DNA from: an uncultured delta proteobacterium
Lineage (GTDB): Bacteria > Myxococcota > Myxococcia > Myxococcales > Anaeromyxobacteraceae
Length of the DNA: 64,000 bases
Assembly (NCBI GenBank): GCA_963814585.1
Contig: CAWFDF010000008.1
Coordinates: 192,001-256,000 of the forward strand
Direction: 5' to 3'
Part shown: piece after piece, positions 39,001-48,000 of the stretch
Numbering within the stretch: the stretch's first letter is position 1
How the letters are laid out: each line of letters opens with the position of its first letter
Position numbers: made by a program

Positions 39001-42000
39001 TGCCGGCGGTCCTCTGGGACCCGGCCGACCGGCCGCGCGACACCCTCGACCCGAAGCGGCGCCAGCACGCCTCCGGCAAGCTGCTGGCCTGGCTGCTCCA
39101 GGCCGCTCCACCCGGCCGGAAGGTCCTGGGGCTCACCGACCAGGACCTGTTCATCCCCATCCTCACCTACGTGTTCGGCGAGGCCCAGCTCGGCGGCCGC
39201 GTGGCGGTGGCCTCCACCGCCCGGCTCTCCGAGGACCTCGACCGCCGGGGCGAGCGACGCTTCACCGAGCGGGTCGTCAAGGAGGCGGTCCACGAGGTGG
39301 GCCACGCCTACGGCCTGGTGCACTGCAACGTCCCTCGCTGCGTCATGAGCCGCGCCGCCGGCGTCCGCGACGTCGACGAGAAGTCCGTCGAGCTCTGTCC
39401 ACGCTGTCGCCGCCGGCTCTCCGAGCCGGGGAGGAGTCCTCATGGCCTCGAATGAGCGCGTCCGCATCCTGGTGGTCGACGACGAGGAGATCGTCCGGGA
39501 GTCGCTGGCCGGCTGGCTGGACAAGGACGGCTACGCGGTCGACCAGGCGGCCGACGGGCCCTCGGCGCTGGAGAAGCTGCGCGCCCGGCCCTACTCCATC
39601 CTCATCGCCGACCTGAAGATGCCGGGCATGGACGGCCTCACCGTCCAGGTCGAGGCCCGGAAGCTGCAGCCCGCCCTGGCGGTGGTGATCATGACCGCCT
39701 ACGCCACCGTCGACACCGCCGTGACGGCCATGAAGCAGGGCGCCTTCGACTACCTCGTGAAGCCGTTCGATCCCGAGGAGTTGACGATGATGATGCAGAA
39801 GATCGTCGCCCAGCAGGAGCTGCTGCGCGAGAACGCCGTGCTCCGCAAGGCGCTGAAGAAGGAGCACCGGCTCCACGATCTCGCCTCCAAGGCCCCGGCG
39901 ATGCAGGCGGTCTTCGACCTGGCCCGCAGCGCGGCCCGCTCCAGCTCCACCATCCTCGTCCTCGGCGAGTCCGGCTCGGGCAAGGAGGTCCTGGCCCGCG
40001 CCATCCATGCCGAGAGCCCGCGCGCCGAGGGCCCGTTCGTGGAGGTCTCGTGCGCCGCGCTCACCGAGACGCTGCTGGAGTCCGAGCTCTTCGGCCACGA
40101 GAAGGGGTCCTTCACCGGCGCCACCGCGCGACGCAAGGGCAAGTTCGAGGCCGCCCACAAGGGCACCCTCTTCCTCGACGAGGTCGGCGACATCGGCCCC
40201 AAGCTCCAGCTCGACCTGCTGCGGGTGCTGGAGGAGCGCCGCTTCCAGCGGATCGGCGGCAACGAGACGGTCGAGGTGGACGTCCGCATCGTCGCCGCGA
40301 CCAACAAGGACCTGCAGCGGGCCGTGGCGGCCGGGAGCTTCCGGGAGGACCTCTTCTACCGGCTCAACGTCATCCCCATCCGCCTGCCCCCGCTCCGGGA
40401 ACGGCGCGAGGACATCCCGCTGCTGGTCGACCACTTCATCGAGCGGCTCTCGGCCGAGCTGGGACGGCCCATCGAGGGGATCTCGGCCGAGGCCATGAAC
40501 GCGCTGATGATCCAGCCCTGGCCAGGGAACGTGCGCGAGCTGCGCAACGTCCTCGAACGGGGCGCGGTCGTTGCGCGCGGGCCGCTCATCGAGCTGGAGG
40601 ACCTCGGCCTCACCACTCGAGCGGGCCCCGCCCCGGCAGGGCCACCGCCCGCAGCCGTGACCTCGCCCGATGAGTCGCTCGACGAGGTGGAGCGGCGGCA
40701 CATCGCCAGCGTGCTGGCCCACACCGGGTTCAACGTCAGCCAGTCGGCCCGGGTCCTCGGCGTCGACCGGGTCACGCTCTACAACAAGATGCGAAAGTAT
40801 GGGCTGCGGCGGGAGGGCGAGGAGGAGCCTGGCCCGCCGAGCGCCCGTTGAGCACCGACGAAGTTCTCCACACCTTCCCCATCCGACTGTAGAGCGCCGT
40901 TGAGTTCTTCCACGCCCGCTGGCGCGCGGCGGGCGTGCGCCGGCGCGCGGCCAGCGACATCTCCCAGTGAATCCGGTCGATTCCGCGGCGGCGCCGCGCC
41001 GGGGCCGCTTGGCCCCATCCTTGCTGAACGTCTCCCCCGGAGGCGCGAATGACTTGCCCGTATCGGAAAGAGGTCTCGATGGTCTTCTGCCGGGCCTACC
41101 CGGTGAAGAAGCTGGTCCCGATCGATCGAGTCACCACCGCGAGCACCTGCGAAGGCGAGGGCTTCCGGACCTGCGCGGCCTACGCCGAGGCGGCGGGACG
41201 CAGCTGGCGAGGGAACGTGGACGAAGACGACACCCTGGAGGGGGCGGGCCATTCCTGAATGGACCCGAGGGAGACAGCCATGAGGATGACGAGGCGAGCG
41301 TTCTTCAAGGTGGCGGGCGTCACGGCCGGCACCGGTCTTGCCGTGGCGGCCACGGCGCGGGCGGCGGACCCGGCCCCGGCCGACGAGTCGCTCCCCGGCG
41401 TGCTGGTCGACACCACCCGCTGCGCCGGCTGCCGGGCCTGCGAGGCGGCCTGCGCCGAGACCAACAAGAACCCGGCCCCCGCCGAGAGCGCCGACATGTC
41501 GGTGCGCCGCGACACCAGCCAGCACGTCTTCACGGTGATCAACCGGGCCGAGGGCCCGGGTGGCGTGGAGCGCTTCGCGAAGAAGCAGTGCATGCACTGC
41601 CTCGCCCCGGCCTGCGCCTCGGCCTGCCCGGTCCGGGCCATGGACAAGCTCCCCACCGGCCCGGTGGTCTACGACGCGTCCAAGTGCATGGGCTGCCGCT
41701 ACTGCATGGTGGCCTGCGCCTTCGACATCCCCAAGTACGAGTACGAGCGGGCCGCGCCGCGCGTGCGCAAGTGCACCTTCTGCGCCGAGCGCCAGGCCGA
41801 GGGCCTCGAGCCGGCCTGCACCTCGGTCTGCCCCACCGGCGCGCTCACCTTCGGCAAGCGGGCCGCGCTGCTCGAGGAGGCCAAGCGGCGCATCTACGCC
41901 GAGGGCTCCAGGTACGTGCGCCGCGTCTACGGCGAGCGCGAGGCCGGCGGCACCAGCTGGCTCTACATCTCGGACATCCCCTTCGAGCAGCTGGCGCTCA

Positions 42001-45000: not shown

Positions 45001-48000
45001 CTCGTCGGGCTGGCCGCGCGCGCCGGCATCGTCCTCGCCCTCGTCGTCTTGCTGGCCATCCCGGTCCTGCTCATCGCCGCCATGATGCGCGGCGCCGGCG
45101 AGCTGAAGAAGAGGTCGCTCGGCCTCCGCGAGGTGGCTGGGCTCATCTTCCGGCCCGACGCCTGGTACAGCGCCGGCCACACCTGGATGACCCGGCTCGC
45201 CGGTGGCTCGCTCCGCATCGGCCTCGATGCCCTCGCCCTCCGGCTCATGCCCACCGTCAACGGCGTCGAGCTGAAGCCGGCCGGGACCCGCGTCACCAGG
45301 GGCGCGACCATCGCCACCATCCACGCCGGCGCCCGCTCGCTGGCGATCCGCTCCCCGGTCGACGGCGTGGTGGTGGCCGCCAACGCCGCCGCGCTCCGCG
45401 ACCCGTCACTGGTCAAGAGCGACGGCTATGGCCGCGGCTGGCTGGTCACCGTGGCTCCCGCCAACATGGCCTTCGCCGACCTGCCCAGCGGCCGCTCCGC
45501 CGAGAAGTTCCTCCGCGAGGAGGCGGCGCGCTGGAACCACTTCGTCGAGGGTCGGCTCGGCTACGCGGCCGCCGACGGCGGCGAGCTGACGGCGCCGGCG
45601 CCCTGGCTGCTCGGCGACGAGGGCTGGCGCGAGCTGGCCGACGCCTTCGTCGACCGCTGAGCTCAGCGGCCGGGTCCCGCCTCGCGGCGGTCCAGGCGCG
45701 GCTCCCGGCGGCCCGGTCCAGGGTCGCCGGCGGGCCGCGCCGGCGTTTCCGGGTGCCGGCGGGCCAGCCCCCAAGCCGATGGTGACCCGTGCCGCGCCCC
45801 AGGCAAGATGACGTGACGAGAGAGCCGAGACCGAAGCGAGGCTGGCGCCCGAGGAGGGAGCAGCGGAAGCGTAGCAGCGCTACGCTGAGCAGCGGACCGA
45901 CGAGGCCGCCTGCCGCAGCGAGAGGATCGGCTCTCGCAGTAGGCATCTTGCCTGGGGCGCGGCACGAGCCCCGGGAGCGGCAGCGCCGCCACGAAGAGGA
46001 GGCCGAGCACCGGCGCGGCGACGAGGAGCAGCGGCGTCGGGACGAGGCGCCGGGGCCGCCGGGGTGGCGAGGCCGGCCGGGCGGCTCCTCGAGGGCCCGG
46101 CCTCACTCGGCGACCAGCTCGCCACCACCCGTCCCCGGCTCGACGGCCGGGAGCCGGATGACGAAGCGCGCCCCGTGGCCCGGTGCGCGCTCCACGTCGA
46201 TGCGCCCACCGTGCCGTGTCACGATGCCGTAGACCACGGAGAGGCCGAGGCCGGTGCCCTTCTCCTTGGTGGTGAAGAACGGGTCGAAGATCTTGCGGAG
46301 GTTCTCGGGTGAGATGCCCGGCCCGGTGTCCTCGACGGCGATCTCGACGGTCCGGCCCCCGTCGGCGACCCGGGTCTCCAGCAGCAGCGTGCCGCCCTCC
46401 CCCATGGCCTCCATGGCGTTGAGGGCGAGGTTGACCACGGCCTGCCGCAGCTCGCCGAAGTCGGCCAGGACCGGCGGAAGCGGCTGGAGCCTGCGGTCGA
46501 GCCGGAGGCCGGCGATGCTGAGCTTGTGGCCGACGAGCTGGATCGACTCCTCGATGGCGGCGTTGGCGTCGACCGGCTCGAGCTTGAGCGGCCGCTCGCG
46601 GGCGAAGTCGAGCAGGTTGCGGACGATGGCCGAGCAGCGCCCGGCCTCCCGCTCCACCAGCGACAGGTTCCGGGTGAGCGTGGCGCGGCTGGCCGGGTCG
46701 GGGACGGCGGTCTCGAGCTGGCGCGTGACCAGCTTGGCGAAGGTGAGGATGCCGGCCAGGGGGTTGTTGATCTCGTGGGCGATCGACGCCGAGAGCTGGC
46801 CGAGCGAGGAGAGCTTCTCGGTCTGGACCAGCGCCGCCTGGGCCCTGCGCAGGTCGGCGGTCCGATCCTCGACCTTCTGCTCCAGCTCGACGTTGAGCGA
46901 CCTCAGGTCACCCTCGACGCGGCGCAGCGAATGGGTCATCTCGTTGAACGACCTGGCCAGGACCCCCAGCTCGCCGCGGTCGTCGACCTGGATCTCCTGG
47001 TCGAGCTGATCACGGGCGATCCGGCGGGTGCCCTCGAGGATGGCGGAGACCGGCTGGACCACCCTGCGGCGCGCGAAGGTGACCAGGGTCCCGCCGAGCA
47101 GCGTCACGCCGAGCACGGCCGCGGCCAGCCCGAACACCCGGGCCATGGACTGCCGGCGATCGGCCTCCTCGAGCGAGACCAGCACCTCCTGGATGCCCAG
47201 CACCTGGTCGCCGCGCGCATGGTGGTGGCAGGTCGAGGAGGAGCAGCGGGCCTCGTTGTGGATGGGGGTGATGACGTGGAGGGCGCGGTGCCCTTCCATC
47301 TCCACGACCCGGCTGGCCCGGTCGACGCTGAGCCGGGCGAGCGGCTGGGGGCCCTGGTGGCAGGGGCGGCACGACTCCTCGGTGCGATCGAGGATCAGCC
47401 CCTCCTCGCCGGAGACCGTGGAGAAGGTGATGGTGCCGTCCTTGTTGAAGACGCGGACCAGGTCGATGCCGGGCTGGCGCCCGATGGCCCGCATGATCTC
47501 GTAGGCGTCGGACCGGCGGTCCTCCAGCATGGCCCGCCGCGTGGCGCTGGAGATGGTCTCGCCGAAGAGGACCGCCCCGGAGAGGGCCTGCTCCATGAGC
47601 GCCTGGCGCATGGTCCGCTCGAAGGCGCCGTAGGCGATGAGCGAGCCGACGAAGAGGATGGCGGTCAGCGAGAGGAGCTGCGTGGAGAGCCGGTGGCGCC
47701 ACGGGATCCTCGCCGTGGGGTCCTGCTGCGGACCGGAGGTGGGTCCCCGCCTCATGGTTCGCCGCGCCTGGGCATGGTCCTGGATGTCATCATCCCCCTT
47801 GGAGGCACGCGCGCGCCGTCGAGACGTCGGTGCCCAGACCCCGGCAAGGTGCCTGCAGCGAGAGGATCGGCCCTCTCGTCGCGTCATCCTGCCTGGGTCA
47901 CGGCACTAGCATGCACCGGGCCGGACCCGGACCGTCGCAGGGGGGGCGAGACATTCGGGCGCGTGGCGAATCGCCGCGGGCGCCTGGCGCCAGGGGATGC

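Follow-up and report, generated by a model that had tools for sequence, protein, structure and literature searches.

Lysine-less GcvH-like proteins probably join a variant HmcBCD-type module to its own signalling system in an uncultured member of the Anaeromyxobacteraceae

Why do genes labelled as glycine cleavage H stand beside those for an NrfD-type membrane subunit? The question is raised by a 64-kb stretch of contig CAWFDF010000008.1 from an uncultured member of the Anaeromyxobacteraceae (the window; coordinates are positions within it). The genome-wide survey's note had described six open reading frames here as one sigma-54-driven operon and had proposed that two membrane-anchored GcvH-like products, here called H1 and H2, serve an undescribed NrfD-type redox complex. 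Re-examination of the reading frames showed that all six genes (Cys protein, FeS, NrfD, H1, c7 and H2) are real and have the features ascribed to them, including the RRAFFK Tat motif, NrfD, c7 and two GCV_H domains (Table 1).

Table 1. The cluster and its control elements, by position in the window
Feature	Position	Strand	Basis
Membrane histidine kinase 1, periplasmic CxxCH and Cx4CH motifs	37259..38899	+	HAMP/HisKA/HATPase
Archaemetzincin (M54) zinc peptidase, active-site motif intact	38907..39455	+	PF07998 E 3.5e-23
Sigma-54 response regulator (REC-AAA-HTH)	39442..40851	+	Pfam
Enhancer boxes pair 1, palindrome GTdGAr-N13-yTCbAC twice	40847..40913	.	sequence pattern
Sigma-54 -24/-12 site 1	41009..41025	+	pattern; kept in relatives
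Small Cys4 protein, 69 aa	41049..41258	+	HMM of fused domains
Tat-exported, tail-anchored FeS protein (HmcB/HybA type)	41280..42158, alternative start 41259	+	NF045715; four Cys motifs
NrfD-type membrane subunit (HmcC/HybB type)	42151..43374	+	NF045714; marker residues
Enhancer boxes pair 2	43596..43662	.	similarity to region 1
Sigma-54 -24/-12 site 2	43758..43774	+	pattern
H1, 246 aa, predicted HmcD-like helix and lysine-less GcvH-like domain	43823..44563	+	GCV_H, HmcD HMMs, AF2
Exported triheme c7-type cytochrome	44560..44907	+	PF14522 E 9.5e-11; TIGR04257 above cut-off
H2, 233 aa, plain membrane anchor and lysine-less GcvH-like domain	44959..45660	+	GCV_H E 1.8e-16
Membrane histidine kinase 2, haem-motif family of kinase 1, canonical H-box	46106..47770	-	Pfam

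H1 consists of an HmcD-like helix (residues 1-35), a linker, a GcvH-like domain (residues ~69-199; Pfam GCV_H E 1.1e-21) and a helical tail with a DGG motif. The GcvH fold was borne out by an AF2 model (pLDDT 87.3), whose best fold match is the pea H protein 1dxm (Z 19.0, rmsd 1.8, 129 residues aligned); GcvH-L 5a35 gave Z 11.5. GcvH (PF01597), LbpA and GcvH-L share this fold but keep the lipoyl-lysine, which passages of PMC6067878 describe as strictly conserved in LbpA, whereas H1 and H2 have His131 and Ala125 in that column and also possess a membrane anchor as well as a helical tail of 50 residues. The loss extends to the family, as had been claimed, with Lys in 3/120 rows of alignment A1 and in 12/231 classified GcvH-like domains from loci. 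Neither protein contains Cys, and both are predicted from their sequences to be unable to carry lipoate. The domains might still act as carriers, modified on a neighbouring basic residue or bearing another group, since the +1 column beside the lipoyl position is basic in most of the 93 H1-type proteins (55 K, 14 R). However, lipoylation requires the exact turn position, H1 and H2 both have Arg at +1 and have lost the E-S-x-K-A hairpin, and the conserved neighbours include no ligase cluster, making this very improbable.

A role in glycine cleavage was rejected, as the survey's note had argued, because the lysine, the curated score and the gcvT/gcvP neighbours are all missing. H1 (78 bits) and H2 (63 bits) fall below the curated GcvH family cut-off of 117 bits, tblastn over the fetched loci found no gcvT or gcvP1 beside GcvH-like genes except for L031 and L032 (the weakest, short matches), and the true gcvT-gcvH-gcvP of this genome lies elsewhere. 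Every source that names the proteins nevertheless says glycine cleavage H. LbpA identity was likewise rejected, given that its conserved lysine and two conserved cysteines (definition in PMC6067878) are absent from H1 and H2. In the ESM Atlas, H1 matched nothing beyond PF01597.

An N-terminal membrane helix had also been claimed; for H1 it is predicted from family conservation and not from the protein's own hydrophobicity, which is only moderate (best 19-residue Kyte-Doolittle mean 1.34). By sequence comparison this helix is a homologue of HmcD, which in Desulfovibrio is the small peptide of the Hmc complex; the relationship is new here. The HmcD family NF045712 matches 11/18 H1-type proteins (best E 1.4e-7), and an HMM of eight true HmcD peptides scores above 10 bits with 68/93 H1-type N-termini and with none of 54 other membrane anchors or 63 soluble forms. 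An HMM of 22 stand-alone peptides recognizes all 93 H1-type N-termini, the window H1 at 16.1 bits. Fusion G218 exceeds the curated HmcD cut-off (35.9 bits), whereas the window H1 does not; its helix is divergent, with 0.9 bits in the strict eight-peptide model and no match to NF045712 at E 0.01. H2 shares the DGG tail, which occurs in 92/93 H1-type proteins, and its anchor is not HmcD-like (-4.5 bits with the HmcD model). Positive charge is greater after the helix than before it in 88/93 H1-type proteins, and P0172 and P0239 are multiheme cytochrome-helix-GcvH fusions; on these grounds the N-terminus of H1 would lie outside and its GcvH-like domain in the cytoplasm.

Three lines of evidence connect H1 with the NrfD module: this homology, gene position and, weakly, co-folding. 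Among 80 loci, the best of 457 retrieved by means of a pattern built on the HmcD-like motif, and hence biased and partly kin, the H1-type gene immediately follows the NrfD gene in 64 and immediately precedes FeS in 7. These 80 loci also upheld the neighbourhood reported earlier, with FeS and NrfD in 70, at least two GcvH-like ORFs in 70 and a sigma-54 regulator in 54. Co-folding of FeS, NrfD and H1(1-42) scored 0.38 against 0.00 for the best of three controls (one of which replaced NrfD); the mark used is reached by 116/157 solved complexes and 2/215 mismatches, although at scores of 0.60 or less by only 18/157 complexes and both mismatches. The runs share at least 88% of contacts, with partner pLDDT of at least 65, and weakly suggest that the H1 helix may contact NrfD. 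No solved NrfD structure of the window branch was found by sequence search. Apparent NrfD-H1 fusions in L119 and L079 were rejected as overlapping high-GC shadow frames.

The FeS protein has four Cys4 motifs and a hydrophobic C-terminal tail and scores 324 bits with its best family, NF045715 (curated cut-off 420); the NrfD protein shows ten hydrophobic peaks, matches PF03916 (E 1.1e-15) and scores 442 bits with NF045714 (curated cut-off 550). Its residues D79, D130, S148, E152, C156, H203, S205 and R350, compared with Table 2 of PMC8076601, are those of eight HmcC proteins and of the genome's HybB, and the window NrfD shares 44-49% identity with the HmcC proteins encoded in eight hmcC-hmcD-hmcE loci. 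With the Hmc complex HmcABCDEF of Desulfovibrio vulgaris, as described in section 11 of 10.1101/2023.11.02.564894, the cluster has in common a Tat-exported, tail-anchored FeS protein, the eight marker residues, an HmcD-like helix and the order B-C-D. In contrast to that complex, no 16-haem HmcA was found in the window cluster, only the triheme c7; HmcE and HmcF were not found, c7 and H2 being the genes that follow H1; HmcB- and HmcC-type scores are under the curated cut-offs; the HmcD part is fused to a GcvH-like domain; and a kinase, a regulator and an M54 peptidase are linked. The core is probably a variant HmcB-HmcC-HmcD with a predicted cytoplasmic GcvH-like domain and without HmcA, HmcE and HmcF, so that the earlier proposal of a wholly undescribed complex is not supported. 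The HybAB anchor of hydrogenase-2 shares the FeS/NrfD branch and marker residues, but the hydrogenase-2 reading was rejected because the operon contains no NiFe small or large subunit genes; the genome's hydrogenase operon, with its own pair, is on contig C12.

Cytochrome, FeS and NrfD modules include NhcABCD (PMC8076601), those in 10.1101/2023.11.02.564894 and PMC9386147, and SirCD/CbcSTU (PMC11434368); the relevant sections propose the three-gene forms as quinol:cytochrome reductases. Like the window cluster, these have a pair of subunits that interacts with quinone, an adjoining c-type cytochrome and neither a molybdenum nor a hydrogenase subunit, whereas those sections mention no HmcD fusions, GcvH-like proteins or conserved signalling cluster, and the relevant part of 10.1101/2023.11.02.564894 gives its module no conserved flanking genes. 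Our literature searches found no description of a GcvH-like/NrfD module, and PMC4641369 does not mention hmc.

The single operon was not sustained. NrfD is followed by a 448-bp gap that contains a second -24/-12 site (43758) and a duplicated enhancer box pair, 72% identical to region 1 over 206 bp (E 5e-21), and the genes therefore form two sigma-54 units. The first -24/-12 site is conserved in relatives, and a scan of 43300-46200 found no sigma-70 promoters or terminators. Across 81 family genomes, all nine enhancer-plus-promoter matches precede module genes, which argues that the module is the output of its regulator; a reversed control pattern gave six matches, so that the placement is informative and the count alone says little. 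The sigma-54 regulator adjoins seven of the nine pattern loci and is probably the activator of both units. The best share of words in RNA runs was 0.14; four runs from a single study contain relatives' contigs that cover all six genes, which is not proof of expression here, and one of these contigs joins the end of NrfD to the start of H1.

The haem-motif kinase and the M54 peptidase, constant members missed by the survey's note, are with the sigma-54 regulator further members of the module, since FeS, NrfD, kinase, regulator and M54 occur together in 26/29 loci of at least 15 kb. The second haem-type motif (Cx4CH) is present in 50/51 family kinases; the H-box of kinase 1 is degenerate (HRLGSP, versus HEINNP or HELNNP in 46/51). 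The full M54 active-site motif is kept in the window protein and 60/63 family members. M54 occurs in 67/78 genomes with a GcvH-like domain versus 27/173 without; both are absent from nine HmcBC regions with stand-alone HmcD and present in both regions with an HmcD-GcvH-like fusion. The small Cys protein, matchless in Pfam and NCBIfam and recovering only unnamed clusters in the ESM Atlas, is matched by an HMM of 18 fused domains (E 7.5e-15) and, on this similarity, corresponds to the N-terminal domain that soluble GcvH-like proteins carry, here encoded on its own. In an AF2 model of a Cys4-GcvH protein the Cys4 part had pLDDT 63-73, and Foldseek matches were H proteins and biotin/lipoyl domains.

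The reading that we prefer, and to which we give an even chance, is that the module works as a quinol:cytochrome oxidoreductase and that regulators dock on it by way of a cofactor-less platform. FeS, NrfD and H1 would form an HmcB-HmcC-HmcD-type membrane module in which electrons pass between the menaquinone pool, at the NrfD site, and a periplasmic cytochrome by way of the FeS chain, quinol oxidation being the likelier direction; c7 is the probable periplasmic partner here. The HmcD-like helix would bring H1 into the complex, placing on its cytoplasmic face a domain with neither lipoate nor redox cofactor that, with H2 and the Cys4 protein, may serve as the platform coupling the complex to the haem-motif kinase, the M54 peptidase and the sigma-54 regulator, which would drive both promoters. 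Counted against this reading were the separate promoter of the H1 unit, the divergent window helix, orphan H1 copies apart from any NrfD gene (regions L114, L118, L122 and L123 of four family genomes) and the 15/29 long loci without a nearby multiheme cytochrome gene.

That cytochrome gap and the lack of a catalytic subunit would also fit a sensor of the quinone pool that is not a respiratory branch, in which electrons from NrfD and FeS reach the periplasmic haems of the kinase and the role of the GcvH-like domains is to assemble the sensor; the two haem-type motifs are nearly constant, and the kinase (26/29) is a steadier neighbour than the cytochrome (14/29). Such a sensor would have no other target, the enhancer being seen only before the module itself in a strict search that may miss targets, and NrfD-c7 fusions (L128, L170) also oppose it; we consider it unlikely. 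H1 might instead be simply the HmcD subunit, its GcvH-like domain and that of H2 being scaffolds or oligomerizers without signalling, and kinase, regulator and peptidase merely controlling the operon. Barrel-sandwich folds are cofactor-less structural domains elsewhere (HlyD and NqrA are among the fold matches) and the tail motif is nearly invariant, but receiver-GcvH fusions exist, HmcBCD modules do without the domain, and M54 tracks it across genomes, leaving this rather unlikely.

The family reaches well beyond NrfD, and the earlier proposal of dedicated NrfD partners is supported only for the H1 link: of 20 Desulfobacterota regions chosen for non-HmcD-type members, 11 contain HdrA-like genes and 1 an NrfD. 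It comprises 1435 clusters (50% identity, E up to 1e-10, some true GcvH included) and occurs in 78/251 sampled Desulfobacterota genomes; the closest named homologues are Anaeromyxobacter proteins (61-64% identity). Soluble forms adjoin HdrA- and NuoG-type enzymes, 12 receiver-type proteins were found, and the tail motif LGxxxxDGG also terminates small membrane peptides and some NrfD subunits. A kinase-receiver-GcvH ORF in L041 (truncated ATPase domain, perhaps a read-through artefact) and the single records P0141 (H1-c7) and P0134, which may be frameshifts, were not relied on. The domains could act as address tags by which cytoplasmic enzymes of the HdrA/QmoB-like, NuoEFG-like or acetyl-CoA synthetase kind dock on the membrane module, providing a cytoplasmic connection in place of HmcE/HmcF. 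Fusions to acetyl-CoA synthetase, NuoG-like (2Fe-2S/4Fe-4S) and QmoB-like proteins, the soluble pair that L183 has head to head with its complete hmc operon, and DGG at the NrfD end in ten loci favour this; yet H1 and H2 lack cofactor ligands for electron carriage, two of five genomes with a NuoG-type cluster or related forms have no HmcC-type match (both 92% complete), and the window cluster has no such enzyme gene. We regard it as distinctly unlikely.

Overall, H1 and H2 are probably the link between a quinone-linked respiratory module and a signalling system of its own. Labels of 'glycine cleavage H' inflate the number of glycine-cleavage and lipoate pathways called in anaerobes, and HmcD emerges as a third subunit that is general to HmcBC-type pairs and open to fusion. 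Three orphans, HmcD, the bacterial archaemetzincin and the two-haem-motif kinase family, gain testable partners, and the genus Anaeromyxobacter is cultured. More tentatively, and with a lesser chance of being right, anaerobes may possess an undescribed docking/proteolysis system, built from the H-protein domain without its lysine, the mobile LGxxxxDGG peptide and archaemetzincin, which would be attached to HmcBCD, HdrA/QmoB and NuoEFG types of redox complex and tie them physically to their sigma-54 two-component systems. If so, bacterial archaemetzincins would gain a first physiological role, and the lipoyl-carrier fold a signalling role that needs no cofactor.

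The six ORFs described by the genome-wide survey's note were all found in the window, at the positions it gave. In family scans, the FeS ORF was a 4Fe-4S protein nearest to HmcB and the NrfD ORF was nearest to HmcC, while GCV_H was matched twice and the c7 cytochrome once in the cluster. In the AF2 model of H1, the first of two membrane-anchored GcvH-like proteins (H1 and H2), a helix (4-35) leads through a loose linker into the H fold, and three further helices form the tail (pLDDT 87.3, 120-row alignment). The top structural match of this model was the pea H protein (Z 19.0). 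The lipoyl column was set by gap-free alignment of H1 and H2 to the genome's true GcvH, whose gene belongs to a gcvT-gcvH-gcvP cluster elsewhere on this contig. H1 has His131 and H2 Ala125 at this position, bearing out the reported absence of the lipoyl-lysine. Lysine occupies the column in 3/120 library rows and in 12 of 231 classified domains (from 237 ORFs, six truncated ones being excluded). It seems highly improbable that the GcvH-like domains are modified carriers.

Our main new result is the homology of the H1-type N-terminal helix to HmcD, the small peptide of the Hmc complex of Desulfovibrio vulgaris. Of 18 H1-type proteins, 11 matched the NCBIfam HmcD model, the lowest E-value being 1.4e-7. 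Among 251 Desulfobacterota genomes, 32 gave an HmcD match and 30 loci were examined: eight matches stand between hmcC and a gene with an hmcE-looking start, others are peptides of 37-55 residues next to FeS/NrfD or cytochrome genes, and some are fused to the GcvH-like domain. A strict HMM built from the eight scored above 10 bits for 68/93 H1-type N-termini, compared with 0/54 other membrane anchors, and an HMM from 22 stand-alone peptides matched all 93. With the latter, H1 of the window reached 16.1 bits (E 4.5e-4 for 1000 sequences) and H2 -4.5 bits; since the strict model gives H1 only 0.9 bits, its homology to HmcD is transitive. In the best 80 of 457 loci from other genomes, the H1-type gene lies directly 3' of NrfD in 64, before FeS in seven, at a contig edge in six and elsewhere in three. 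Unannotated HmcD-like peptides of 37-48 residues adjoin FeS/NrfD or cytochrome genes in L143-L147, L149 and L162, some of them 5' of the FeS gene.

We co-folded FeS(30-288), NrfD(12-407) and H1(1-42) using 53-row alignments. The score was 0.38; of three controls, one of them with NrfD replaced, none exceeded 0.00. The mark was attained by 116/157 solved complexes and 2/215 mismatches, but only 18 of the 157, along with both mismatches, attained it with a score no higher than 0.60. Contact agreement between runs was at least 88% and partner pLDDT at least 65. The models thus lend weak support to an association of the H1 helix with FeS-NrfD; PDB sequences gave zero matches to this NrfD profile. 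A purely structural role for the GcvH-like domains is unlikely in our estimation.

NrfD retains D79, D130, S148, E152, C156, H203, S205 and R350, all of which are shared with eight HmcC proteins and with HybB of this genome; mapped by motif, most of them match quinone-site and channel residues that PMC8076601 lists for HybB and NhcC. E152 and C156 are replaced by L and H in most of the distant family members (47/53). Fusions of NrfD to c7 (L128, L170) point to the c7 as partner, and the HmcBCD-type module would pass electrons from menaquinol to cytochrome c. That the module is instead a quinone-pool sensor is quite unlikely, though it stays viable because 15 of 29 long loci are without a multiheme cytochrome. 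Charge after the H1 helix is more net positive than before it in 88/93 H1-type proteins, and two library proteins carry a multiheme cytochrome N-terminal to the helix; on these grounds the GcvH-like domain of H1 is predicted to be cytoplasmic. It is unlikely to carry electrons, since it would be out of reach of the periplasmic FeS chain and is without cofactor ligands.

The dedicated partnership with NrfD that had been proposed was not upheld. Among 20 Desulfobacterota regions selected for non-HmcD-type domain matches (two overlap), HdrA-like genes occur in 11, the archaemetzincin peptidase M54 in 10, kinase plus regulator in 15 and NrfD in one, where a soluble GcvH-like pair stands head to head with a complete hmc operon. 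The domain is also fused to NuoG-like, QmoB-like and acetyl-CoA synthetase proteins. Docking of cytoplasmic enzymes by the GcvH-like domains is decidedly improbable. Three further frames of about 990-1060 aa in Desulfobacterota genomes may equal the QmoB-like type listed below. The HdrA-CCG-NuoG/E/F-like cluster recurs in L130, L164, L166 and L169, and the 605-614-aa fusion in L131 and L165; next to the latter, L163 and L131 have a small kinase and a sensory gene resembling FeFe-hydrogenase.

Features of the window and of loci from other genomes (L-numbers)
Sequence	Position (strand)	Feature
Window	34024-37048 (-)	HEAT-repeat protein, then HD-GYP-like ORF (latter by eye)
Window	37259-38899 (+)	Haem-motif kinase paralogue; degenerate H-box, may be pseudo-kinase or phosphatase partner
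Window	41009	Sigma-54 -24/-12 site
Window	41049-41258	Cys4 protein
Window	43758	Sigma-54 -24/-12 site
Window	43823-44563	H1
Window	44959-45660	H2
Window	45790-45970	REP-like repeat, between H2 and kinase 2
Window	46106-47770 (-)	Haem-motif kinase paralogue (kinase 2)
Window	47830-47915	REP-like repeat, upstream of kinase 2 start
L086	6783-9422	Acetyl-CoA synthetase with C-terminal GcvH-like domain, within cluster
L089	11581-14055	As L086
L129	8710-13453	HdrA-CCG-NuoG/E/F-like cluster; in place of a catalytic domain, NuoG-like subunit has terminal Cys-rich and GcvH-like domains
L163	5767-10237	GcvH-like fusion
L188	8607-11522	QmoB-like protein (FeS, MvhD/FlpD) with molybdopterin-binding and GcvH-like domains

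The 231 domains fall into four types, 93 HmcD-anchored, 54 plainly anchored, 63 soluble Cys-rich and 12 receiver-fused, plus nine others. The 69-aa protein of the window corresponds, at E 7.5e-15, to the Cys4 domain that one soluble subtype carries, here as a separate protein. An LGxxxxDGG tail motif is present in 92/93 HmcD-anchored, 49/54 plainly anchored, 51/63 soluble and 0/12 receiver-fused proteins. It likewise closes about twenty small membrane peptides and, in ten loci, the C-terminal tail of NrfD (individual E-values 1e-4 to 0.2), a distribution that would suit a mobile docking peptide.

Rather than the single operon that had been claimed, the window holds two co-regulated units, each with a -24/-12 site and a pair of upstream palindromic boxes; their upstream regions share 72% identity across 206 bp. 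The box pattern occurs nine times genome-wide, and only the cluster's four copies lie within about 300 bp of a sigma-54 site. Box plus promoter gave nine matches in 7/81 family genomes (seven upstream of Cys4-FeS-NrfD, two upstream of H1), the reversed control pattern giving six. H1 directly follows NrfD in five relatives (L113, L116, L117, L119, L121), and the two units of the window probably derive from promoter duplication. Orphan H1- or H2-type genes occur in family genomes (L114, L118, L122, L123 and L124), and several of them are accompanied by an enhancer-like box or a sigma-54 site. The palindromic, intergenic REP-like repeat matches about 75 places in the genome. The two paralogous haem-motif kinases stand on either side of the cluster.

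Going by their titles, the 80 loci come from Glassbacteria, Bacteroidota with Ignavibacteria and Chlorobiota, Calditrichota, Desulfobacterota, Myxococcota, Krumholzibacteriia, Gemmatimonadota, Deferrimicrobia and Nitrospinae, while two that carry actinobacterial labels look doubtful. The contigs L101 and L104, labelled Arthrobacter and Actinomycetota, have genes close to the Deferrimicrobia ones and are possibly misbinned. Within these best 80 of 457, FeS and NrfD are both present in 70, the sigma-54 regulator is found in 54, and the CxxCH kinase and M54 in 51 each; of the 29 loci that span at least 15 kb, 26 have all five. Among the 251 Desulfobacterota genomes, in which kin are not independent, M54 is found in 67/78 with the GcvH-like domain (some of the weakest 13 may hold short GcvH relatives) compared with 27/173 without it. 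M54 and the domain were both absent from nine HmcBC regions chosen for stand-alone HmcD. We suggest that the HmcD subunit would display the GcvH-like domain as a site where regulators dock.

Outside subscription journals and supplements, we found no literature joining NrfD with GcvH or the glycine cleavage H protein, and a wider search of the same scope returned no titles on an NrfD-GcvH-like system; Table S3 of a Tat preprint and the figure of PMC9386147 may depict such clusters. We give an even chance to the reading that the cluster encodes an HmcBCD-type menaquinol:cytochrome c oxidoreductase whose HmcD subunit offers a cofactor-less docking domain to regulators, and such an adaptor system atop an HmcBCD-type complex is possibly new.
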